Origin: Kagunavirus BCH953P1
Reading direction: 5' to 3' (one strand)
Length of the DNA: 44,622 nucleotides
Sequence record: OZ035754.1
Shown: piece by piece, positions 3,956-41,511 of the stretch
Numbering within the stretch: position 1 is the first letter of the stretch
Layout of the letters: each line of letters starts with the position of its first letter
The notes under the pieces: model-generated
The model's input: the letters and a program-made list of their open reading frames with translations, nothing else
Database searches by the model: none
Told to the model about the DNA's origin: nothing
Program-made: the position numbers and the translations under genes

Positions 3956-3985
3956 AGGCCCCGTTAAGGGGCCTTAGTTTTATTT
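3956..3985 (+). terminator. rho-independent terminator (aggcccc-gtta-aggggcct then T-rich)
   Basis: GC hairpin followed by tagttttattt; sits after the head morphogenesis gene and overlaps the 3' end of the minus-strand ORF 3964..4200. Confidence 0.55.
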
Positions 3986-4200
3986 AAAGAATATCGCGAA
4001 CTTCTTGTAACCCGCTGGCTCGTTGCGCTGACCATGTTCGATAGCAAAACGTTGAACGTTGTTAAAATCGTTCTCTTCCATACCGTCGGTGCAAAAGGTA
4101 AAAAAAAGTTACGTTTGTTTCCGATAAGCACACGGCTCGCAACATCAATGCTGTAAAGTTCTTCGATAGCGCGTACCACGTTTGCAGTAGCTTTGTTCAT
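3964..4200 (-). CDS. hypothetical small protein (78 aa as read; contains an internal A8/T8 homopolymer, alternative frame possible)
   Basis: Track ORF; reverse-oriented inside the structural block; preceded by conserved promoter P1; C-terminal half runs into the terminator hairpin. Confidence 0.4.
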   Translation of the reverse strand: MNKATANVVRAIEELYSIDVASRVLIGNKRNFFLPFAPTVWKRTILTTFNVLLSNMVSATSQRVTRSSRYSLNKTKAP

Positions 4201-4235
4201 TTCTAAATTCCTTATCTCTCGTTTCGATGTAATGA

Positions 4236-4264
4236 ATAGTACCCTATTATATTGGGGTGCGCAA
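4236..4264 (-). promoter_or_regulatory. sigma70-type promoter P1 (TTGCGC-N17-TACTAT), B-family
   Basis: On minus strand TTGCGCACCCCAATATAATAGGGTACTAT; identical over about 33 nt to the copy at 13781..13809; immediately upstream of the minus ORF 3964..4200. Confidence 0.6.
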
Positions 4265-4539
4265 ACTGTTTATTCACCTATTTCAGTTATTCCACTTGAT
4301 TGTAAATGTCGGAATAAACTATTCGAATAGTTGACTTTTCACTGAAAATATGATAAGCTCCACCTGAGCTTGTGAAGTATGAACAAGCGACCGCGGCGCG
4401 GGCAGGTAACGGAGCGGGACGTAAGTCCTGAGTGTAGTTACGCTGACGCGTTCGGAAGGGTCATACTATATTGCTTGTGTAAAAAGTAACTGGTTTACTG
4501 AGATTACGCCGTTTCTATGTTTAAATGATAAGGACTAGC

Positions 4540-11905: not shown

Positions 11906-12393
11906 TATTTATCGCTCCCGTGTGATTTTAAGTATGTAGAGTTCCCGTTACAGTCATATTCAGTGACCGCGTGTGTCGTGATTCCTAAGCCGCGGAAATG
12001 CTTTATTACCGCTGGAGAGTCGTCGAATGCGCACAAGATTCTCTCCAGCCCAATAGCACGCAACACCTCTTCTTTAATTACGATGTCTTTTCTGTTGTCG
12101 TGTTTGCTGCGCATTAACAGAACGTCGAACTTGACATTGTTTTTACGTAACCACTCGCGAGTTTCTTCCTCGGCGTCGTCGCTTCGCCCGGTAAGGATGA
12201 TTACGGTCATCCCGGTATGCCACAACGTGTTGCACAAGTGAATGTTGTCATATATCGGCGAATCATCTTTGCAGGCCATGTTAAAAGGCTTCCACGCCCA
12301 GGTTTCGCCGTAGTTATCTTTTGGCAGCAGGTGTAAGCGATGAGTTCCGTCGGCTAATGTTCCATCTAAATCGAAAATCACAATATCTTTCAT
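11905..12393 (-). CDS. HAD-superfamily phosphatase (nucleotidase / polynucleotide phosphatase-like)
   Basis: 162 aa; N-terminal DLDGTL HAD motif I; ATGA-type overlaps with both neighbours. Confidence 0.65.
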   Translation of the reverse strand: MKDIVIFDLDGTLADGTHRLHLLPKDNYGETWAWKPFNMACKDDSPIYDNIHLCNTLWHTGMTVIILTGRSDDAEEETREWLRKNNVKFDVLLMRSKHDNRKDIVIKEEVLRAIGLERILCAFDDSPAVIKHFRGLGITTHAVTEYDCNGNSTYLKSHGSDK

Positions 12394-13520
12394 CCCAGCA
12401 TCTCCGGTGAAATAGTTAAACGTGCGACCTCGCCATATTCGGCGCTATAAGTAATTACATTTGCACTACGGCCTGACATCCATCCGCCGCGAGAGGCGTA
12501 TGCGTCTTTAGCCGCTAAGGTGCGGTGTTGCTCAACAATCATGTTACGGCTTTCTACAATCTTTTGATGGTGCAGGTGGCCTACGTGGGCGTAGCTGTAA
12601 ACACTCTCGCCGAATGCTTTGCGGAACTTGGCAATCATAACCGGTTCGATAGCGTCGAAGCGTGCTTTATGTCCGTGATGGAAGAACAGCGTAGTTTTGC
12701 CGTGTTGTACCATCTTGTAAACATCCGGCGACGTATCGACAACCACTCGGCTGTCGTTCGAATATAAAACTGTGAACATTTCTGCCAGCCACACGGACCC
12801 TACAGGGTCGTGATTTCCTTGCACGATAAGCAAGCGAACGGTTTTATGTTTAACCAGCGCCATATCAACAACACGGCGCACCATACGAATCATGTAGCGG
12901 ACAAGTTTCTGGTAGCGAGTGTCCGCGTCCAACACATGACGTGACTCAGGAGTAACGGCATCCAGACTATCGAAGTGCGCGAAGTCGCCTAGCAGGTTAA
13001 TAACTCCCGTTCCTGCATCCGGTGCTTTCTGAAACGCCGCATCGAACCAACGGGAGAACAGGTCTTCCGCAATTTTCATGTCCCAGTCGTCGCCACTCTC
13101 GTCGGCCCATGCCAGCATACCGAGATGGAAATCAGATACCGTGTAAAGATTGAGTAGCTTGTCGTCGCGTTTAGCGCGAACGGCTTTAACAGGTGCAACG
13201 GGTGTAATCTCTGACTTCATGCCTTCAATTACGGCTTTCATCAACTCTATCTGACGTTCGGCGTCAGTATCGGTCTTAACCCATTGCAACTTAGTGTTGC
13301 CGAACTCGTCCACAAGTGACGACGTGCCTTTAATTTTGTAGCCGTCCGGGACAAGGTGGCTAACGTCGCGCCCGTGGCCTACGCCTTTCTTAGCCAGCTT
13401 CGCTTTACGGATGCGAATAACGCGGTCTGAGATGCCATATTTACGGGCTATATCGATAGTTTTAACTCCGGCGTTCAATTCTTCCTGTAACTGCTCGTCG
13501 GTTATTTTCTTCCGGGCCAT
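12390..13520 (-). CDS. HTH domain fused to calcineurin-like metallophosphoesterase
   Basis: 376 aa; N-terminal HTH-like segment (IARKYGISDRVIRIRK); phosphoesterase motifs GDFAH, GNHD, GHLH. Confidence 0.65.
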   Translation of the reverse strand: MARKKITDEQLQEELNAGVKTIDIARKYGISDRVIRIRKAKLAKKGVGHGRDVSHLVPDGYKIKGTSSLVDEFGNTKLQWVKTDTDAERQIELMKAVIEGMKSEITPVAPVKAVRAKRDDKLLNLYTVSDFHLGMLAWADESGDDWDMKIAEDLFSRWFDAAFQKAPDAGTGVINLLGDFAHFDSLDAVTPESRHVLDADTRYQKLVRYMIRMVRRVVDMALVKHKTVRLLIVQGNHDPVGSVWLAEMFTVLYSNDSRVVVDTSPDVYKMVQHGKTTLFFHHGHKARFDAIEPVMIAKFRKAFGESVYSYAHVGHLHHQKIVESRNMIVEQHRTLAAKDAYASRGGWMSGRSANVITYSAEYGEVARLTISPEMLG

Positions 13521-13558: not shown

Positions 13559-13765
13559 TCACTTCTCGTTAACATTCGAGTTGCACGCCCAGATTAAAAT
13601 AAATACCCACGGCAGCAGAATCCAACCAAGAAACAGGTTGGCCATGAATATCGCTAACTTCGCTTTATGGTTACGGAAGTACGCAACCAGGAAAGGTGCG
13701 AAATAAGCGAGAAGTGCAAACAGAATTAAGGAAACCGGTAAACTTGACATTTTAAACCCCTTCAT
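13559..13765 (-). CDS. small membrane protein (two predicted TM helices)
   Basis: 68 aa hydrophobic ORF; first gene downstream of promoter P2. Confidence 0.5.
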   Translation of the reverse strand: MKGFKMSSLPVSLILFALLAYFAPFLVAYFRNHKAKLAIFMANLFLGWILLPWVFILIWACNSNVNEK

Positions 13766-13780
13766 TGTTGGTGTAAGTGA

Positions 13781-13809
13781 ATAGTACCCTATTATATTGG
13801 GGTGCGCAA
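13781..13809 (-). promoter_or_regulatory. sigma70-type promoter P2 (TTGCGC-N17-TACTAT), identical copy of P1
   Basis: Same about 33-nt sequence as at 4236..4264; precedes the minus-strand cassette 13765..11351. Confidence 0.6.
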
Positions 13810-26285: not shown

Positions 26286-26600
26286 TTATAATTCCTTATA
26301 TTGTTGGGGTATGTGCTTACTATAATAGTCTGCTATTAGGGTGTCAACCTGTTTTATAGAGCCAACCACAAAAACATTTGCGCCGCGTTTGCGCATCCGC
26401 TCATGTTCTCGTAGCTGGTGCGGGTCTGGCTTCGTGTTTTCGTCTTTCTTAACCTCGACAAACCATATGATGCCGCCGGGGAGCATTACCAGCAAGTCGG
26501 GGGCGCCGGAGCGCCCCTCGTAGGAAAGTTTACGAACGAGGCCCCCCAGGGCCTCGAATCGGTCTTTCGCGTATTTCTGTACGCGGCCCTCTTTAGTCAT
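26286..26600 (-). CDS. VRR-NUC domain nuclease (PD-(D/E)xK)
   Basis: 104 aa; GAPDLLVM ... FVEVK pattern typical of VRR-NUC. Confidence 0.55.
   Translation of the reverse strand: MTKEGRVQKYAKDRFEALGGLVRKLSYEGRSGAPDLLVMLPGGIIWFVEVKKDENTKPDPHQLREHERMRKRGANVFVVGSIKQVDTLIADYYSKHIPQQYKEL
26319..26347 (-). promoter_or_regulatory. sigma70-type promoter P3 (TTGACA-N17-TATAGT), A-family
   Basis: On minus strand TTGACACCCTAATAGCAGACTATTATAGT; lies in the 3' end of the VRR-NUC gene, upstream of 26030..26284. Confidence 0.55.
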
Positions 26601-29890: not shown

Positions 29891-29919
29891 ACTATAATAG
29901 CTAACTATTCAGGTGTCAA
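29891..29919 (-). promoter_or_regulatory. sigma70-type promoter P4 (TTGACA-N17-TATAGT), A-family
   Basis: On minus strand TTGACACCTGAATAGTTAGCTATTATAGT in the intergenic gap upstream of 29214..29837. Confidence 0.6.
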
Positions 29920-29923
29920 CACT

Positions 29924-30415
29924 TTATTTGCCGTGATTTTCGTGGAAACCGTACTTAACCTCTGCGGCCTTTCGCGCTGCTATTGCGCCGTCGATAGTTT
30001 CAAAACGTCCGAGATGAATTAGTTTCTTCTCAACTTTTATCTCAGCTCGCCATTTGCCGCGGGTTTTATCGAAACTAACACCCGTCACCCCTGACGTGTT
30101 GTTGCGGGCTAAAGATAAATTACGGCTGTTCTCTTTTCGGGTTGTTTTCCTTAAATTAGAAAGAAGATTATTTTCCCGATTATGGTCAATATGGTCTATC
30201 TCCTCTCCAGGTTGAAGTTTATTTTCAGGGTTCATCATATCCCATATAATTCTATGCGCCAGAAATGTCCTTCCACGTAAACGTACGCACACATAGCCCC
30301 AATTACGGACAGACGCGACCTCGCTCCCAGCGGGTGCACGATTGCTGTTAGTTACGCGCCAATACAACTTACCGGTATTGGTATCATACCTAAAATAATC
30401 TTCCCATTTAATCAT
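29924..30415 (-). CDS. HNH homing endonuclease with AP2 DNA-binding domain (copy 1)
   Basis: HNH motif EIDHIDHNRENN; AP2-like SGVTGVSFDKTRGKWRAEI; start at internal ATG 30415 in ATGA overlap with exonuclease stop. Confidence 0.75.
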   Translation of the reverse strand: MIKWEDYFRYDTNTGKLYWRVTNSNRAPAGSEVASVRNWGYVCVRLRGRTFLAHRIIWDMMNPENKLQPGEEIDHIDHNRENNLLSNLRKTTRKENSRNLSLARNNTSGVTGVSFDKTRGKWRAEIKVEKKLIHLGRFETIDGAIAARKAAEVKYGFHENHGK

Positions 30416-31653
30416 TCCAAATCCTCCTCTGTTACCCCCTTCCACTCAGGTCGTTTGTCGTCCGCCGTTGTAACGCATGGGGCTCCGGGCTTACGCGTGA
30501 TGAAGTTTTTTAGTTCTTCTTCTGGGATAACTTTCAAGGCTGCTGTAGGGGTCATGATTGACTTAGTCATAACTTTATCACCAAATTTAGCAATAACGGC
30601 ATCGGGGTCCGCCCAGGAGCGATTGCCATCCCGCCCTTCAACCAGCTTGTACCCCGGAACTTTCTTACCGGAATGCAACGCGGCAGCCATAGCTTTCTCA
30701 ACCTTGTCGATGTGCTGGCGCAACAACGGCAGCTTCTCATACTCGGCGACGAGTTGCTCTGGCGTCAATTCCAGCGCAAAGTCGTCCTCAAGTTCTTCCG
30801 CCAGTACCGCGTTAACGGTTTTTGTACGCGCGGCGCACTGTTCGGAGAACCGACACCACTGGCAACCATCTACTGACGGCTTGAAGTCCGACGCTTTCAG
30901 GTTCTTCTTGCCACGGAAATACGCATCAAGAGCTAACAGCGCACGTTTCTGTGCAAACTTAGCGAACAGTTCCAGACCTTCAACCGAGATGTCCCACTCC
31001 GACGCACCCCCAGCGTACGGCTGGAAGATGACCAGACGAACCATTGTTATGTTATAACGTCTCTTTAGTCGGCGATAAACACCGAGAGCGTAAAGCATAA
31101 GCTGCTTGTTTTCTTTCGCTTCGACACGATGTCGTCCTGTTTTCAGGTCGCCGATGATAAGCATGTGCTCTTCGGTGTTCGCCAGTTCCTGGACGGCAAC
31201 AAGGTCAGCGGTTCCGAACGTCTCGACACCTTCGTAACCAGGATGCAATACCTCAGTAAGATTGACGCGCATTTCCAGCTTAGCGTAAGTCGCTACGTCC
31301 ATAATCGCTTTGCAGTAGTCGGTGTACTTTCGCACCTGCTCAATCATGTCAGCCGTAATCAGCACCGCGCCTTTCATCGGGCTGATTAGCGCCTTAATCT
31401 GGCCTTTACCCTCATCCAGCACGTAAGCACCGACTTCGCGCTCTAACGGCAGTGCAGTGCCTTTTATGTACTGGTTTAAATGTACCTCAGCTATGGTGTG
31501 ACACGCGGTCCCTGTAACGGCGGCTTTACCTGACGTGTTGGGGATATCTTTTTCACAGGCCAGTGATGCACTGCACGCCAACCATTTCTTAGCACCGGAC
31601 GGTGACAACAGCGCGTGCACATCGTTATTGCCCCTGCGTTCTTTTAATTTCAT
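30412..31653 (-). CDS. PD-(D/E)xK exonuclease (Cas4/RecB-like, DUF2800-like) with C-terminal Cys cluster
   Basis: 413 aa; IIGDLKTGRH...EAKENKQLMLYALG nuclease core; Cys cluster CQWCRFSEQC. Confidence 0.6.
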   Translation of the reverse strand: MKLKERRGNNDVHALLSPSGAKKWLACSASLACEKDIPNTSGKAAVTGTACHTIAEVHLNQYIKGTALPLEREVGAYVLDEGKGQIKALISPMKGAVLITADMIEQVRKYTDYCKAIMDVATYAKLEMRVNLTEVLHPGYEGVETFGTADLVAVQELANTEEHMLIIGDLKTGRHRVEAKENKQLMLYALGVYRRLKRRYNITMVRLVIFQPYAGGASEWDISVEGLELFAKFAQKRALLALDAYFRGKKNLKASDFKPSVDGCQWCRFSEQCAARTKTVNAVLAEELEDDFALELTPEQLVAEYEKLPLLRQHIDKVEKAMAAALHSGKKVPGYKLVEGRDGNRSWADPDAVIAKFGDKVMTKSIMTPTAALKVIPEEELKNFITRKPGAPCVTTADDKRPEWKGVTEEDLE

Positions 31654-32144
31654 CTTTTAACCCCATGATTTTTGTGGAACCCGTAAATCTCTTCTGCTTT
31701 CTTTCTAACGTTTACCGCATCGTCGAAGCTGTCGAAGTATCCTAAATGCTTCAATACCTTGTTTATTTTTATACTTGCCCGCCATCTACCGCGCCTACGG
31801 CACCATGAAACTCCGGTCACACCTGACGTATTTAGCGACGACATTCCAGAATTACGCCGGTTGCCTAGACTGTCAACTTTACGAAGATTAGATATGCGAT
31901 TATTCCTTCTGTCATGGTCTATATGGTCAATCTGGTCGCCGCTACTTAAAACATCATTAGGATTACAAAGTTCCCATATAACACGGTGCACTTTATAGAC
32001 CTTACCTAACACTTGTACCTGTTTATAGCCGTGAACATCATTCGACCCCGCCTCTTGGCCTACCTTTACCTTATCCGAAGGGCTTATCTTCCAAAATAAT
32101 TTACCGGTATCAGGGTCATAGTCAAAAACTTCATGCCAATTCAT
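31650..32144 (-). CDS. HNH homing endonuclease with AP2 domain (copy 2, paralog)
   Basis: HNH motif QIDHIDHDRRNN; AP2-like SGVTGVSWCRRRGRWRASI; ATGA overlaps at both ends. Confidence 0.75.
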   Translation of the reverse strand: MNWHEVFDYDPDTGKLFWKISPSDKVKVGQEAGSNDVHGYKQVQVLGKVYKVHRVIWELCNPNDVLSSGDQIDHIDHDRRNNRISNLRKVDSLGNRRNSGMSSLNTSGVTGVSWCRRRGRWRASIKINKVLKHLGYFDSFDDAVNVRKKAEEIYGFHKNHGVKR

Positions 32145-32413
32145 ACTCTGTTCTCCCACTGGTCGATTAAATGTCTGGTCCGGTGATGACAATGCATAGC
32201 CCAGCCATACATCGACTCGAAGACATAAAAGTCAGGCTTGGCGAATGTCGTGCGCTTAATCTGCGACAAGTGACGGCCTATATCTTTAGGCCGTGGCACT
32301 TTGCCTAAGTACGCCATCTCTTCCATCTGGTGCGCACCGGATGGCGCACGCAATAGCCATAGCGCCTCTGTGCTATCCCGCCGGTCTACGGCGCGGTAGA
32401 GTTGGTAAATCAT
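32141..32413 (-). CDS. hypothetical protein (90 aa)
   Basis: Track ORF. Confidence 0.5.
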   Translation of the reverse strand: MIYQLYRAVDRRDSTEALWLLRAPSGAHQMEEMAYLGKVPRPKDIGRHLSQIKRTTFAKPDFYVFESMYGWAMHCHHRTRHLIDQWENRV

Positions 32414-32456: not shown

Positions 32457-32975
32457 TTATTCTTCTTCGAAATACTTGTTCTTGATTGCTGTCAGGCGCT
32501 CCAGATACTCAGCCAGGTCTTCGTCTTTAATCGCAGCAATCTTCATCTTCTTACCGGTAAACTCTTCCAGCAGTTCGTCAGAATCGTCGCATGCGGCATC
32601 GCTTGGGCCTTCGTTAATCGCATCGTCGATGGCCTGAATCTGGTTACGAAGAGACTGGTAATCGACTTCTTCTTTATCTTCTTCCGGTTCTGGCGCAGGT
32701 TCCTCTACTTTAGCTTTACGCGGCTTGCGTTTCGGCTTCTCTTCTTCTGCCGGTTTAGTGTCAACTACGTCTTCACCCTCGACCGGGATTTCTTTTGTTT
32801 CTTCTTTTACAACAGTAGGCGTGATTGTTGCAGTTTCTGCGACACCACTGTCGACGTCTTTACCATATGGCGCCGTGATAGCCTTCGGCAGTTCAGTACG
32901 GCGTGCACTGTTCGCAGCAATCAGTTCATGTGCAACTACGAAACGTTCCAGTAATTTTAAGAATTGGTCTAACAT
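32457..32975 (-). CDS. hypothetical acidic protein (172 aa)
   Basis: Track ORF; highly charged central region; first gene downstream of P5. Confidence 0.5.
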   Translation of the reverse strand: MLDQFLKLLERFVVAHELIAANSARRTELPKAITAPYGKDVDSGVAETATITPTVVKEETKEIPVEGEDVVDTKPAEEEKPKRKPRKAKVEEPAPEPEEDKEEVDYQSLRNQIQAIDDAINEGPSDAACDDSDELLEEFTGKKMKIAAIKDEDLAEYLERLTAIKNKYFEEE

Positions 32976-33006
32976 TTGTTTCTCTCCTCTCGTTTGGTAT
33001 GGGCTA

Positions 33007-33035
33007 ACTATAATAGCGAACTATTCACTTGTCAA
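33007..33035 (-). promoter_or_regulatory. sigma70-type promoter P5 (TTGACA-N17-TATAGT), A-family
   Basis: On minus strand TTGACAAGTGAATAGTTCGCTATTATAGT; perfect -35. Confidence 0.6.
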
Positions 33036-33045
33036 TGGGCTTTTC

Positions 33046-33068
33046 TAAAATAATTAATATGGTACTAT
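33046..33068 (+). promoter_or_regulatory. promoter-like element for the HTH gene (B-family -10 block GGTACTATTCAC without a recognisable -35)
   Basis: TACTAT at 33063..33068 with the same flanks as P1/P2/P6; divergent from P5. Confidence 0.4.
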
Positions 33069-33099
33069 TCACATATCAACTGACTAAGGAGTAATTGAC

Positions 33100-33315
33100 A
33101 TGCAACCATCTGAACTAGGCATCCGTGTAGAACAGCGCCGTAAAGAACTCGGCATTTCCCAACGCCGTCTGGCTGTCCTGGCCGGTGTTTCCCAGGGCGC
33201 GATTAACCAGCTGGCACTCGGTGTAACTAAGGACGTCCGCCCGTCGACGTTGTTTAAGCTGGCGGAAGTGCTGCAAGTAGACGCCAAGTGGCTGGCGTTC
33301 GGTGAAGGGGCTTAA
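33100..33315 (+). CDS. XRE-family helix-turn-helix transcriptional regulator (Cro/CI-like)
   Basis: 71 aa; HTH ISQRRLAVLAGVSQGAINQL; SD AAGGAG; opposite orientation to flanking genes. Confidence 0.75.
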   Translation: MQPSELGIRVEQRRKELGISQRRLAVLAGVSQGAINQLALGVTKDVRPSTLFKLAEVLQVDAKWLAFGEGA

Positions 33316-33330
33316 CGCCCCTTTCTTTTT
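33306..33330 (+). terminator. rho-independent terminator (aggggc-ttaac-gcccct then tttcttttt)
   Basis: Seen directly, between convergent HTH and primase genes. Confidence 0.6.
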
Positions 33331-33332
33331 AC

Positions 33333-35573
33333 CTACTCCAAATCCTCCTCTGTCACCACCAGCATTTCATTCGGTTCGTATATTGTCTTCGGCCTTAGTC
33401 TATCCCCTATTCTTTCAGGTATACGATATGTTCTCGGTACTACTTCGCCATTAGCGTCGCAGCCTAGCATCAACTCACCGTCTTTCAGCATTTTATCAAG
33501 ATGGGTGTTAGTCACAGAAAAGTCACCGGAACGGGCCACTATCTGCTGCTGGGTAAAACCGCGACCTGTATCATCTGACTGTTGCAGGTCTTCCAGTGCT
33601 GAAAGTATTGACTCCTTCCTTACTTCATCCCTGCCGCGTTTAACTTCTTCCTTTACTTTTTGTTTACCTTCGTTAGTTAACCCTTCTTCCCGCTCTTTCT
33701 CCTCGTCAGTTTTGAACGGCTCGAAACCCCACGGCATAAGCACAAGCGCCTTGTGCGGCTCCGGCAGGTCGAGGTTTACTATTGTGCCGTATTCCTCTGT
33801 GCTACCGAGGAACTCAACCGCGCGATACTCTTTCGGCGGAGGAGCTTCACGAAACTGTACAGACTCCAGCACCATACCAACCGTTTTCTGTTGAGGCCCG
33901 TGCTTAAATTTCGAATGGTATACGTTTATCTGGCGGTCGGTTGCACGTTCAATTGTCAGTTCCACGTCGACGCCCGCATACAGCGCCCCACTACCACGGG
34001 CTTTCTTTCCGCCCTTCGGCGTATGGTGGACGACGCCAACCGCAGCTTTAGTCGCGTCGCGTACTTCTTTCAGTATGGCGATAACTTTACCCATGCCAAT
34101 CGCCGTTGATGAACTGTTTTCGTCGAACTTATCAATCGTCAGGGCCAGCGTCTGGTTTAGGGTGTCGAACGCAACCATACCGATTGGCTCGTCGCCGGCG
34201 GTTTCACGCATCAACTTAATAAGGCTTTTCAGTTTGCCAACTTCGCCCATGTCGATGACATGTACATAATCTTTACCTTCCTCGCCGTATTTAGCCGCGA
34301 GTGCGTCAATACGTGTGCGTGTAGCTGCGCCGCCCTCACCGTCAATATAGAAATGGTGGCAACGCTGGGTATCCGCCCCTGCAAACCGGTATCCGGCGGC
34401 GCTCAGGTACATCATCCCCAGCGTATAGAACGATTTGTACGTGCCGGATTCCCCAACAATATCCCAGATACAATCTGACGGCATGTACCCCTCAACGACG
34501 AAATCAGCCTTTACCGGTTCCGGTAGCTCGTCCTCTTCTGAGTCATCATCGTCTTCCAGGTCGTCGAGGCTGCATGAAACAGATTCACGCGCACCCCATC
34601 CGATAGCCTCGGCGACTTCACTGAACGGCAGCCCGGTCGCATCACACGCGTATTTCCACACTTCTTTCGGTGACATGCCTTCGGTCGCCGCAATGTCGGT
34701 GTCGTGAATCATGGTTACGTTAGGTGCGGCGTAGCCCTCACGTGGGAAGCACAGCAGGAAGTCGTCCGGACGCGGTGTCGGGTCGCTGTAGTTTTCTGCA
34801 TGCTCTGGTGTGGCTGGCATCTTAAGGCCGCGTGGTGTCATAGCACCGCCGTACTCGAACGCCAACGCCTCAAAAGCGTCCGTAAACGCTGTGCGTAGTT
34901 CTTCCGGTATCTGGTAGTCAGATGCGCTGCTCACCTCGTAATCCGGGATGCCCTCCAGTAACTCGTCCGGGTCAATCAGGTCGTTACGGCGCGACCAGAT
35001 AACCTGCGAGCCGACCGGCGGCAGGTACATCGGCTGAGACAGAGTGAACCCGCTGCGGTCCGCACCCATGCCTTTGAAGAAGTGTTCCAACAATCCATGA
35101 CGAACGCGGATGATGTCACCGCCCTCAACCGTTCGGGCCAGCGGCATGACGACGCGAAAGCGCGGGGCTTCGTCTGTGTGTGATGCCGTGGTGTAGAGGC
35201 ACATGGCTTTACGGCTGCGCTTAACCAGGCGCACAGCTTCCTGATACTCTTCCAGGGTTGCGCTGTCGAAGTCCAGGTACGTCAGCGACGATTTGTTTAC
35301 AGACGCGTCGCAGCGGTAGAAGAAGCCCCGGCGCGCTTGCTTAAAGTCACCGGTTTCCGGGTCTTTTACGGTGCTGTGCGTAGAATCGCACGCGGCAGTA
35401 ATATAGCCCGGCGCGGTCTTCGGATTAATCCCGTCACGAACGGCATCGAGCGGCTGGATTAACTCTTTCAGGTCGTCCAGTGTTGCCGTGTGAGTGGTTC
35501 TGACGTTTATATCCTTTTTCTCTGCCCGCGCGTTGCGACGAGACCACGAGTAGGATAAAATTACATCGGACAT
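33333..35573 (-). CDS. DNA primase/helicase (RecA-like AAA_25-type ATPase domain in C-terminal half)
   Basis: 746 aa; Walker A-like VGESGTYKS, Walker B-like region; N-terminal half unassigned (primase-like by position). Confidence 0.6.
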   Translation of the reverse strand: MSDVILSYSWSRRNARAEKKDINVRTTHTATLDDLKELIQPLDAVRDGINPKTAPGYITAACDSTHSTVKDPETGDFKQARRGFFYRCDASVNKSSLTYLDFDSATLEEYQEAVRLVKRSRKAMCLYTTASHTDEAPRFRVVMPLARTVEGGDIIRVRHGLLEHFFKGMGADRSGFTLSQPMYLPPVGSQVIWSRRNDLIDPDELLEGIPDYEVSSASDYQIPEELRTAFTDAFEALAFEYGGAMTPRGLKMPATPEHAENYSDPTPRPDDFLLCFPREGYAAPNVTMIHDTDIAATEGMSPKEVWKYACDATGLPFSEVAEAIGWGARESVSCSLDDLEDDDDSEEDELPEPVKADFVVEGYMPSDCIWDIVGESGTYKSFYTLGMMYLSAAGYRFAGADTQRCHHFYIDGEGGAATRTRIDALAAKYGEEGKDYVHVIDMGEVGKLKSLIKLMRETAGDEPIGMVAFDTLNQTLALTIDKFDENSSSTAIGMGKVIAILKEVRDATKAAVGVVHHTPKGGKKARGSGALYAGVDVELTIERATDRQINVYHSKFKHGPQQKTVGMVLESVQFREAPPPKEYRAVEFLGSTEEYGTIVNLDLPEPHKALVLMPWGFEPFKTDEEKEREEGLTNEGKQKVKEEVKRGRDEVRKESILSALEDLQQSDDTGRGFTQQQIVARSGDFSVTNTHLDKMLKDGELMLGCDANGEVVPRTYRIPERIGDRLRPKTIYEPNEMLVVTEEDLE

Positions 35574-35631
35574 ATTGTATATTCCTTCAGCAAGTAATTT
35601 GGCCTCGGCGCTCTAACGTCGGGGCTTTCTT

Positions 35632-35865
35632 TTATTCCAGGTCTTCTAAAGTAGCGGCCATTCCGCGAACTTCAGCAACAGCACTATATTTCCCACCAAC
35701 ATTTTTCACGACACCAGATTTAACCAGCACCTTCAACGACCCTTCAATAATGGCGGAACTATAGTACCTAAAATAACTACGGCGCAAGTCGATAACGCTG
35801 CACGACCCTTTTTTACGTGTTAACGAAACGACTGCCGTGAATACGCGTGACTGGAACTCGGTCAT
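35632..35865 (-). CDS. hypothetical protein (77 aa)
   Basis: Track ORF; C-terminus ends EDLE like two other proteins in this block. Confidence 0.5.
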   Translation of the reverse strand: MTEFQSRVFTAVVSLTRKKGSCSVIDLRRSYFRYYSSAIIEGSLKVLVKSGVVKNVGGKYSAVAEVRGMAATLEDLE

Positions 35866-36032
35866 TTCACATTCTCCTTAATCCACGCTTCCACTTTCTC
35901 CGGGTCAAACGTACCCGGCTGACGGCGGCCCATAATGCGGATACAACAATCCGGGAACTTCCCGCTCTTTAGCCAGTTATTCAGTGTGCGACGAGTAACC
36001 CCGATACGCTCGGCTACTTCATTCTGTGTCAT
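35862..36032 (-). CDS. small HTH DNA-binding protein (AlpA/excisionase-like fold), probable early regulator
   Basis: HTH MTQNEVAERIGVTRRTLNNW; start taken at internal ATG 36032 because the predicted promoter P9 lies at 36066..36093 (track ORF extends to 36065). Confidence 0.5.
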   Translation of the reverse strand: MTQNEVAERIGVTRRTLNNWLKSGKFPDCCIRIMGRRQPGTFDPEKVEAWIKENVK

Positions 36033-36065
36033 TCTCAAACCCTCAGTATCAGTTAACGAAACCAA

Positions 36066-36093
36066 GTATACATTGCGAATAATGGGAAATCAA
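36066..36093 (-). promoter_or_regulatory. candidate sigma70 promoter P9 (TTGATT-N16/17-TATACT) for the minus-strand replication operon
   Basis: Read on minus strand; moderate match. Confidence 0.35.
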
Positions 36094-36182
36094 ACATAAT
36101 CGCACCTATTGACATTATGAAAATCTTCGTTTAAGGTGCTTCTATATCTTAGTTACTTTGATTCCTGTTCACCTTGTAAGAA

Positions 36183-36216
36183 TGTTTAACCCGTGCGTCA
36201 AGCAAAGGGTTAAACA
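36183..36216. promoter_or_regulatory. inverted repeat tgtttaaccc / gggttaaaca (10-bp arms, 14-nt spacer) in the early control region
   Basis: Seen directly. Confidence 0.4.
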
Positions 36217-36370
36217 CAGGCTTACTGAACACGAGAATTATCATAACTTTCCTTCCTTAGTATCTCCGGTTGCCCTGGGCAAGCTATATTCTCATCAACG
36301 GCATATCTCTTAAGTATCTGATTTTCTTAATGTGCCGTAGATTCGCAACCGTAAAAATGTAACCCTTACC

Positions 36371-36394
36371 GGGCGGGCTTAAGGCCCGCCCTTT
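36371..36394 (+). terminator. GC-rich hairpin gggcgggc-ttaag-gcccgccc followed by TTT
   Basis: Seen directly, in intergenic region upstream of P6. Confidence 0.4.
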
Positions 36395-36464
36395 AGTTAC
36401 AAAGTAATAAGAATAAAGGCACGACCCTGCCTGAAGAATCACAACGGCAACGTAACTATTCTCT

Positions 36465-36493
36465 TGCACACCCCAACATAATAGGATACTATT
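36465..36493 (+). promoter_or_regulatory. sigma70-type promoter P6 (TTGCAC-N17-TACTAT), B-family
   Basis: TTGCACACCCCAACATAATAGGATACTAT; near-identical to P1/P2; 25 nt upstream of the first plus-strand early gene. Confidence 0.6.
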
Positions 36494-36517
36494 CACTTAT
36501 CGTAACGAGACAGAGGA

Positions 36518-37944: not shown

Positions 37945-37973
37945 TTGCACACTGAGATAGAATAGGCTACTGT
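37945..37973 (+). promoter_or_regulatory. sigma70-type promoter P7 (TTGCAC-N17-TACTGT), B-family
   Basis: TTGCACACTGAGATAGAATAGGCTACTGT followed by TCATTTACAC as in the other B-family copies. Confidence 0.5.
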
Positions 37974-38004
37974 TCATTTACACAAACGAGAGGAGAGATA
38001 GAAG

Positions 38005-41460: not shown

Positions 41461-41482
41461 ATCTATTTTCTGCAATGACTAG

Positions 41483-41511
41483 TTGACTATTACTCTCACA
41501 CCAATTATATT
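41483..41511 (+). promoter_or_regulatory. sigma70 promoter P8 (TTGACT-N17-TATATT)
   Basis: Strong consensus match, directly after the terminator and about 35 nt upstream of 41545. Confidence 0.55.

Follow-up and report, generated by a model that had tools for sequence, protein, structure and literature searches.

The operators of phage 434 are 14 bp long and consist of two 5-bp half-sites around a 4-bp center (5+4+5), with the A at position 1 read by Gln28 (PDB 3CRO/2OR1). They lie as three adjacent sites in a tripartite OR, where Cro has CI as its partner and a PRM promoter is present. Phage λ Cro, which is confined to OL/OR, turns off PL and PR. In phage P1, a single repressor, C1, which maintains lysogeny, works through many dispersed operators, asymmetric 17-bp sites that lie inside promoters genome-wide. 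The C proteins of restriction-modification systems, such as C.AhdI and C.BclI, are small HTH_3 dimers that act on paired operators in front of their own gene as a concentration-dependent timer. Here, these systems are compared with a locus in Kagunavirus BCH953P1 (sequence record OZ035754.1; Guernseyvirinae), whose 44,622 nucleotides were analyzed as a whole and are called the window. The locus contains a gene for a 71-residue helix-turn-helix (HTH) protein, the arrangement of which had suggested, in an initial annotation, an autoregulated switch controlling the timing of replication-gene expression. With moderate confidence, the gene is proposed to encode a CI-less repressor of the 434 Cro type that regulates itself and promoters throughout the genome via candidate operators of the form AATAG-N4-CTATT. 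What is new is the identification of AATAG-N4-CTATT as an enriched palindrome embedded in the promoter of the HTH gene, in the divergent promoter P5, and in dispersed promoters elsewhere.

Judged from its sequence, its size, and its modeled fold, the 71-residue protein is a member of the 434 Cro/HTH_3 family. The open reading frame (ORF), with AAGGAG upstream, lies where the initial annotation had placed an XRE-family gene, and residues 11 to 65 of its product match Pfam HTH_3 (E=7e-13; score 48.8, cut-off 23). The protein has a single domain, with no C-terminal dimerization or peptidase domain, and its length falls within the 60 to 75 residues of a Cro-type protein. A phmmer search of all PDB sequences returned 434 Cro as the top match (1zug, E=1.7e-7, a full-length match over residues 6 to 68), both proteins being 71 residues long, followed by the 434 repressor and P22 C2. 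An AlphaFold2 model (pLDDT 79.5) has five helices, and its top Foldseek matches are the N-terminal domain of the 434 repressor and 434 Cro (TM 0.73-0.79, 37-42% identity); C.AhdI and C.BclI are also among the close structural matches. Homologues were found by tblastn in 572 phage records, with identities of 91-99% within Kagunavirus, ~51% in Jerseyvirus, 38-44% in other Guernseyvirinae, and ~47% for genes at the Cro position of temperate phages. The recognition helix (GVSQGAINQLALGV) is unchanged among homologues down to 76% identity, and Gln Q32 is invariant in the family.

The palindrome AATAG-N4-CTATT, also 14 bp, is present at 11 sites in the window when up to one mismatch is allowed, compared with 1.06 +/- 1.13 expected; none of 100 shuffles reaches 11. 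When all 5-mer palindromes with gaps of 0 to 8 were scanned without bias, it came out on top in the window, with 6 perfect copies, and likewise in phage Jersey, with 4; no scanned palindrome has more than 3 perfect copies in the shuffles. Two of its copies account for the intergenic repeats ACTATTCAC at 33020 and 33064: a perfect site, O1, within P5 and a site with one mismatch, O2, at the promoter of the HTH gene (Table 1). The mismatched base of O2, a T at position 5, is at the same time the T of the extended -10 "TG". Eight of the palindromes lie within well-formed promoters 25 to 75 nt upstream of start codons. The Jersey site orthologous to the copy at 26324 is annotated as a promoter, and the one orthologous to the weaker copy at 41478 adjoins an annotated promoter. 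A one-mismatch copy, TATAGTATGCTATT at 2790-2803, is the only one at a translation start; it comes immediately behind a terminator hairpin, overlaps the start codon of the head-morphogenesis gene, is kept in the relative Bas76, and is probably a chance match.

The promoters that carry these sites fall into two families. Matches of 11/12 to the σ70 consensus occur only 3 times in the window, versus 0.48 expected from shuffles, and all three are on the minus strand, contain the palindrome, and form a single family (A-type), to which P5 belongs. P5 is the strong leftward A-family promoter reported in the initial annotation; it would drive the gene for a 172-residue protein and, presumably, the replication and recombination genes downstream. 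In the A-type layout (palindromes at 26324, 29896, and 33012), TTGACA-N4-AATAG-N4-CTATT-ATAGT, the palindrome occupies the spacer. The B-type promoters (4235, 13780, 36480, and 37961) have the form TTGCRC-17-TACTAT, with the palindrome overlapping the -10. The two registers relative to the -10 hexamer differ by 6 nt, and thus contacts with polymerase cannot explain both placements. Since the candidate operators all lie in core promoters, either in the spacer or at the -10, their positions favor repression. Three of the B-type promoters (4232-4262, 13777-13807, and 36466-36496) also share a longer block between the -35 and the operator, TTGCRCACCCCAAyAT, which is not conserved in Jerseyvirus and could reflect recent duplication or a second site.

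The promoter of the HTH gene, as the initial annotation had it, combines a B-family -10 block, TACTATTCA, common to the four B-type promoters, with the lack of a -35; no acceptable -35 element can be read 16 to 18 nt upstream of the extended -10. In 37 distinct Kagunavirus sequences, both TGn and TACTAT are preserved, as they are in a lineage with 77% identity, where the TGn is TGc. At the same position, Jerseyvirus has a full TTGCGT/TTGCAC-17-TACTAT. A generic promoter scan was overall at chance (12 matches versus 12.6 expected); only the 11/12 matches and cross-genome conservation were used, and the HTH promoter is thus supported by its conservation across about 40 Kagunavirus loci rather than by the scan. 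The description of the two promoters as divergent is correct, but "overlapping" is loose: the -35 of P5 (33030-35) and the plus-strand -10 (33063-68) stand back to back, and only the polymerase footprints would overlap. On the minus strand, the O2 region (33050-33079) resembles a decayed A-type promoter, TTGATA-18-AATTAT (9/12), that aligns with P5. This likeness suggests that O1/P5 and O2 may stem from a 44-bp tandem duplication; a weak second leftward promoter may overlap the HTH promoter.

The HTH gene is closed by its own terminator, as had been claimed, with a hairpin at 33304-33324 followed by CTTTTT and the stop codon of the gene in the loop. Loci of Kagunavirus (36) and of Jerseyvirus (about 10) have retained the terminator, the arms in Jerseyvirus being different (GGGGCC/GGCCCC). 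A shared 5'-leader motif, AACGAGAGGAG, was considered and set aside, as it is not enriched (7 sites versus 10 expected).

Table 1. Features of the HTH locus, copies of the palindrome, and associated genes in the window
Feature	Position	Strand	Basis or context
P5, σ70 promoter TTGACA-17-TATAGT	33007..33035	-	11/12 consensus matches
A-type promoters	26347, 29919, 33035	-	the three 11/12 σ70 matches
Extended -10 of HTH gene, TGgTACTAT, no usable -35	33060..33068	+	sequence and conservation
Shine-Dalgarno AAGGAG, 8 nt before ATG	33086..33091	+	read from sequence; kept in all Kagunavirus and Jerseyvirus loci
HTH_3 protein gene, 71 aa, phage 434 Cro family	33100..33315	+	ORF with ATG start; recognition helix VSQGAINQLALG
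Intrinsic terminator of HTH gene, hairpin GAAGGGGC-TTAAC-GCCCCTT(T), then T tract	33304..33330	+	
172-aa acidic protein, phrog_3127	32457..32975	-	first gene under P5
Helicase-primase (AAA_25)	33333..35573	-	convergent with HTH gene in the window
O1, perfect, AATAG-CGAA-CTATT, in P5 spacer	33012..33025	.	candidate high-affinity operator
O2, one mismatch, AATAT-GGTA-CTATT, over HTH -10	33056..33069	.	candidate autoregulatory operator
Copy AATAG-CTAA-CTATT	29896..29909	.	in A-type promoter (minus), upstream of single-stranded DNA-binding protein and DNA polymerase genes
Copy AATAG-TCTG-CTATT	26324..26337	.	in A-type promoter (minus) inside 3' end of gene 26286..26600
Copy AATAG-GATA-CTATT	36480..36493	.	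over -10 of B-type TTGCAC-17-TACTAT (plus), head of plus-strand early operon
One-mismatch copy AATAG-GCTA-CTGTT	37961..37974	.	in B-type promoter (plus); perfect in Bas76
Copy AATAG-TACC-CTATT	13780..13793	.	in B-type promoter (minus), upstream of small membrane-protein and 376-aa HTH-nuclease genes
Copy AATAG-TACC-CTATT	4235..4248	.	in B-type promoter (minus), upstream of gene 3964..4200
Weaker copy ACTAG-TTGA-CTATT	41478..41491	.	upstream of plus-strand small-gene cluster; promoter context less clear
Weaker copy AATAG-TTGA-CTTTT	4326..4339	.	overlapping -35-like TTGACT (plus)
376-aa protein, N-terminal HTH-like segment and Mre11/SbcD-like metallophosphatase	12390..13520	-	phrog_704, E=4e-162

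A 1.3-kb query around the locus matches 434 phage records, the closest being the E. coli Kagunavirus phages hz69, UTI-CM001, and fBC-Eco01 (89-95% identity), and comparison among relatives indicates which parts of the sites are constrained. In the intergenic region of Kagunavirus (37 distinct sequences), conservation of the two O1 half-sites is 100% and 99.5%, as against values down to 73% for the four bases of the center and down to 68% for the three-base stretch, variable in length, that separates O1 from the -35. Among the paralogous A-type promoters, the half-sites are identical, while the centers (TTCG, TTAG, and CAGA) and the four bases beside the -35 differ. O2 keeps its single mismatch throughout the Kagunavirus sequences compared, and in the 77%-identical lineage it reads AATAT-GCTA-CTATT, still with TGn. 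Because the mismatched base also belongs to the extended -10, there appears to be a trade-off between the strength of the promoter and that of the operator. In every lineage examined, the HTH_3 gene is present and O1 fits the lineage consensus at least as well as O2.

Between genera, the half-site changes in concert. In Pantoea phage AH01, whose HTH protein is 44% identical to that of the window and has the helix TQGGIGH, the top non-terminator palindrome is AATAC-N4-GTATT, with five perfect copies, which fall at O1 and at orthologues of the window's promoters; the AH01 O2 has one mismatch to this sequence. Perfect copies of AATAG..CTATT number 6, 7, 4, 0, and 0 in the window, Bas76, Jersey, VSiA, and AH01, respectively, and those of AATAC..GTATT number 0, 0, 0, 0, and 5. 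In the Cornellvirus phage VSiA, the orthologous promoters and the vicinity of the HTH gene carry ATTAS-N4-STAAT. A symmetric change of the half-site at all sites of a genome points to a phage-encoded dimeric factor with a shifted specificity. A wider proposal, which is offered tentatively, is that the Guernseyvirinae, a virulent siphovirus subfamily, run most of their σ70 promoters under one CI-less 71-residue Cro-type protein, whose specificity has switched together with its operator set between genera. This proposal entails a symmetric switch at position 5, from AATAG to AATAC, and another at position 2, giving ATTAS.

How closely does this resemble 434? The protein is of the same Pfam family, fold, and length as 434 Cro, and the N-terminal domains of the 434 and P22 C2 repressors share that family and fold. 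The candidate operators have the 14-bp 5+4+5 form with A at position 1, the Gln that reads this A being conserved, and they overlap the core promoters of a divergent pair as two sites of unequal quality. Unlike 434, there is no CI partner, no PRM, and no tripartite OR; the half-site is AATAG rather than ACAA, the helix has Q-G-A-I-N rather than Q-Q-S-I-Q, and further single copies of the site are dispersed in about six to eight other promoters. In addition, the gene in the window is monocistronic and faces the replication gene that it precedes in other genera. A bridge to 434 is provided by Klebsiella phage GZ7, the closest temperate homologue (48% identity), in which the helix is KQQTIQQ as in 434 and the gene lies between cI and cII-O-P. 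The GZ7 intergenic region contains two perfect 434-type ACAA-N6-TTGT 14-mers (ACAAACAAGTTTGT and ACAAATAACCTTGT) and a partial third copy. These 14-mers beside a homologue in the cro position serve as a positive control for seeking 14-bp operators near such genes. Together, the 434-like geometry, the invariant Gln, the two unequal sites at its own promoter, and the GZ7 arrangement favor the Cro-like protein as the binder.

The proposed mechanism begins with the 71-residue repressor as a remnant of a lambdoid-type early control region without its CI partner. On entry, host σ70 polymerase would fire the A-type, B-type, and HTH promoters, the HTH transcript starting from the extended -10 promoter and ending at its own terminator. 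As Cro-like dimers accumulate, they would bind the 14-bp operators in the A-type spacers and over the B-type -10s, excluding polymerase. The perfect operators would fill first, namely O1 in P5, the site before the genes for the single-stranded DNA-binding protein and polymerase, and the site at the plus-strand early operon. The imperfect O2, over the -10 of the HTH gene itself, would fill later and, through negative autoregulation, limit synthesis of the protein. Overall, early and middle transcription would be turned down in the manner of Cro throughout the genome and not in the replication block alone. The HTH protein as the binder, the sign of the regulation, and the order of site filling are all inferences. 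In its proposed role, the protein is like λ Cro in being a small early product that damps divergent early promoters, including its own; however, λ Cro has a different fold and is not homologous, and the phage here is virulent with sites genome-wide. The dispersed sites recall those of P1 C1, a protein that is unrelated in sequence. By analogy, then, the locus would work most like the lytic turn-off by Cro, extended to dispersed operators reminiscent of the P1 C1 regulon.

Several observations weigh against this proposal. No functional work on this regulator in Guernseyvirinae was found in the literature. The only transcriptome study of a close relative, RNA sequencing of phage vB_Eco_K1B4 (92% identical), places the orthologue of the HTH gene (gene 004) in the "middle" class and the gene for an HTH_17 protein (gene 008) in the "early" class (PMC12645636); the time points and classes are coarse and strandedness is not stated, so that the "middle" label is not decisive, and antisense read-through from the convergent helicase-primase could confound it. 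A simple genome-wide shut-off would be harmful to the phage if the lysis and structural genes are also served by operator-bearing promoters; where such plus-strand promoters do serve them, the regulator may modulate rather than shut off. The spacing of O1 and O2, 44 bp in the window and 43 bp in the 77%-identical lineage, gives no hint of cooperative binding. Covariation of the recognition helix with the half-site across genera was considered but is not clean, and is not used as evidence: Kagunavirus (SQGAINQ) and Jerseyvirus (SQSLITH) have different helices and the same AATAG, and the Jerseyvirus helix resembles that of Cornellvirus (TQSAISH), whose operator is ATTAS. Lastly, all four lineages have a second DNA-binding candidate, the 376-residue protein (80-85% identity), whose N-terminal HTH-like segment differs from genus to genus.

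These last points are also what speaks for the idea that the palindrome is a real operator with another binder, be it the 376-residue protein, an unrecognized small phage protein, or a host regulator, and that the Cro-like protein has other or narrower targets. The 376-residue gene itself lies downstream of an operator-bearing promoter. However, the protein matches a DNA-repair exonuclease family rather than a transcription factor, and the 5+4+5 geometry, with two sites flanking the HTH promoter, is what would be expected of an autoregulator of the 434 Cro type. A host factor is argued against by Jerseyvirus and Cornellvirus, which both infect Salmonella yet differ in their half-sites. Curated annotation lists two regulators, the HTH_3 protein and the 67-residue "excisionase-like" HTH_17 protein. 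The latter (35862..36065) was rejected as the general regulator, given that it is undetectable, as is a neighboring 77-residue protein, in VSiA and AH01, which keep the operator system; its own promoter is also without the palindrome. On this evidence, another binder is unlikely.

The same motif has been seen before in a different light. In fBC-Eco01, PHIRE found a 20-mer, tgAATAGTa-ccTATTat-T, that was attributed to a phage RNA polymerase (PMC9825357); it and AATAG-N4-CTATT are the same DNA motif at the same positions. Unlike that interpretation, the motif is read here as a palindromic operator in σ70 promoters. One could nevertheless suppose that it is purely a promoter feature with no dedicated repressor, arising from duplicated modules or from the promoters of a modified or phage polymerase, with the palindrome produced by -10-like sequences on both strands. 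In B-type promoters, the right half-site does overlap the -10, and the A and B types clearly form paralogous families. Yet neither the ORF list of the window nor the curated Bas76 annotation contains an RNA polymerase gene, and the window has no unassigned ORF of polymerase size. In A-type promoters, the half-sites lie in a spacer that is not read by polymerase, and are invariant while neighboring spacer bases vary. The register of the palindrome also differs between the two promoter types, and the symmetric G-to-C change at position 5 of both half-sites of every AH01 site would not be expected from polymerase constraints or shared ancestry alone. A pure promoter feature is thus regarded as improbable.

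Equally improbable is a dual or positive controller that, like the restriction-modification C proteins, activates one promoter and represses the other as a delay timer. The arrangement has features that would suit it. Using predicted transcription start sites, O2 is ~62 bp upstream of the P5 start and O1 is ~56 bp upstream of the HTH start; the operators are of unequal quality and stand 43-44 bp apart between back-to-back promoters; C.AhdI and C.BclI are close structural matches; and the HTH gene is "middle" in the RNA sequencing. But at every well-formed site the operator is inside the core promoter, which is a repressing position, and the A-type promoters, near consensus and with a 17-bp spacer, need no activator. 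The locus also differs from C proteins in that its candidate operators lie inside many core promoters and that no restriction-modification genes adjoin it; the neighbors are replication genes, with a terminator directly 3' of the HTH gene. A co-directional toxin or operon partner, as for a HipB/HigA-type antitoxin, was likewise not found at the locus. Finally, it is very improbable that the gene is a relic of a lost lysogeny module with little present function, for although there is no CI or integrase and the closest homologues outside the subfamily are temperate-phage Cro proteins, the gene is kept in those 572 phage records, spanning at least 4 of the genera examined, with its helix invariant to 76% identity and its promoter, ribosome-binding site, and terminator conserved.

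Lacking CI, an integrase, and a tripartite operator, and with a gene that does not head the replication operon in the window, the locus does not qualify as a CI/Cro lysogeny switch. The absence of a visible lysogeny module, which the initial annotation had remarked on, is borne out by the curated annotations of Bas76 and Jersey, which contain no CI homologue and no integrase; the sole lysogeny-related item is the HTH_17 regulator. Kagunavirus phages are described as strictly lytic, and fBC-Eco01 is reported to be without integrase or lysogeny genes (PMC9825357).

The position of the HTH gene, opposed to the minus-strand genes on either side of it, is as first described. It is the only plus-strand gene in the minus block of the window from 23.5 to 36 kb, and its Bas76 orthologue is the only one between about 24.2 and 36.6 kb. 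However, this layout is not general in the subfamily. In Cornellvirus VSiA, PSDA-2, Klebsiella phage VLCpiS11a, AH01, and the metagenomic locus L057, the HTH gene heads a plus-strand operon into the helicase-primase, which diverges from the minus-strand replication operon; a gene of this kind as the first of a replication operon, the usual place of cro, is thus seen in VSiA, PSDA-2, VLCpiS11a, and AH01 and not in the window. In VSiA and AH01, where HTH gene and helicase-primase are co-directional, the former is not followed by a terminator. In Kagunavirus and Jerseyvirus, where the HTH gene has its own terminator, the helicase-primase is on the other strand, behind the HTH_17 and 77-residue genes and a separate promoter-like site. 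The comparison of gene order suggests that the solitary orientation is a lineage-specific rearrangement of a cro-like layout rather than a design feature of a switch, and that it arose because the helicase-primase module is inverted in these two genera relative to other Guernseyvirinae. After such an inversion, the terminator would keep HTH transcription from running antisense into the helicase-primase.

Of the switch envisaged in the initial annotation, then, the autoregulated divergent pair retains its support from the 434 Cro family membership, O1 in the P5 spacer, O2 over the gene's own -10, and the lack of CI and integrase in annotated relatives. Control specifically of the replication block does not hold, since a candidate operator is also present in at least 6 other well-formed promoters, so that any control would be genome-wide. 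The lone gene running against the flow does not hold as a switch layout either, as the rearrangement is limited to Kagunavirus and Jerseyvirus.

A number of other features were seen in the surrounding DNA. A plus-strand terminator-like hairpin with a T tract, and without a U tract on the minus strand, lies at 35601-35626 between the 77-residue gene and the start of the helicase-primase. Antisense transcripts that run past the HTH terminator could be halted there; no matching terminator is present after the helicase-primase in VSiA or AH01. In the RNA sequencing of the relative, the genes on either side of this hairpin are in different temporal classes (PMC12645636). Between the minus and plus blocks, a gene-poor interval of 450 bp (36066-36517) contains a promoter-like site (36073-36100) and a strong terminator (36371-36391), both on the plus strand, and could hold a non-coding RNA of ~300 nt or tiny ORFs; a search of the whole window against Rfam gave zero matches, in this interval or elsewhere. 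A replication origin in the AT-rich interval between O1 and O2 was considered and rejected: the turns of the cumulative GC skew, at ~23 kb and ~36 kb, follow gene orientation, and none is seen at 33 kb. Two similar-looking minus-strand ORFs inside the replication block, 29924-30445 (173 aa) and 31650-32192 (180 aa), resemble by eye homing endonucleases of the HNH/AP2 type and look like mobile insertions; the corresponding gaps in hz69 contain only small hypothetical genes, and fBC-Eco01 has HNH endonucleases annotated elsewhere in the block. The 172-residue neighbor of the HTH gene has no Pfam match. In the minus-strand ORF for a small membrane protein at 13559-13765, the annotated first ATG is without a ribosome-binding site, and a second ATG, five codons downstream after GAAGGGG, is the more likely start.

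Phages of Kagunavirus and Jerseyvirus are widely isolated, are candidates for therapy and biocontrol, and serve as synthetic-biology chassis. The annotation of this gene differs among them ("repressor", "DicA", "DNA-binding", or "hypothetical") and is sometimes a cause of concern about lysogeny. If it encodes a Cro-only regulator of the lytic cycle, a reading that rests on inferred binding, the label "repressor" need not imply a temperate lifestyle. Likewise, the published promoter motif of a phage polymerase would be an operator inside host-type promoters, and promoters, operator, and repressor would make up a defined parts list for engineering these phages. No new category of mechanism is opened. 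Rather, if the proposal is true, the 71-residue protein would be a genome-wide transcriptional governor or timer of a lytic phage, and the Guernseyvirinae would offer a compact natural system in which to follow the co-evolution of a regulator and its regulon.

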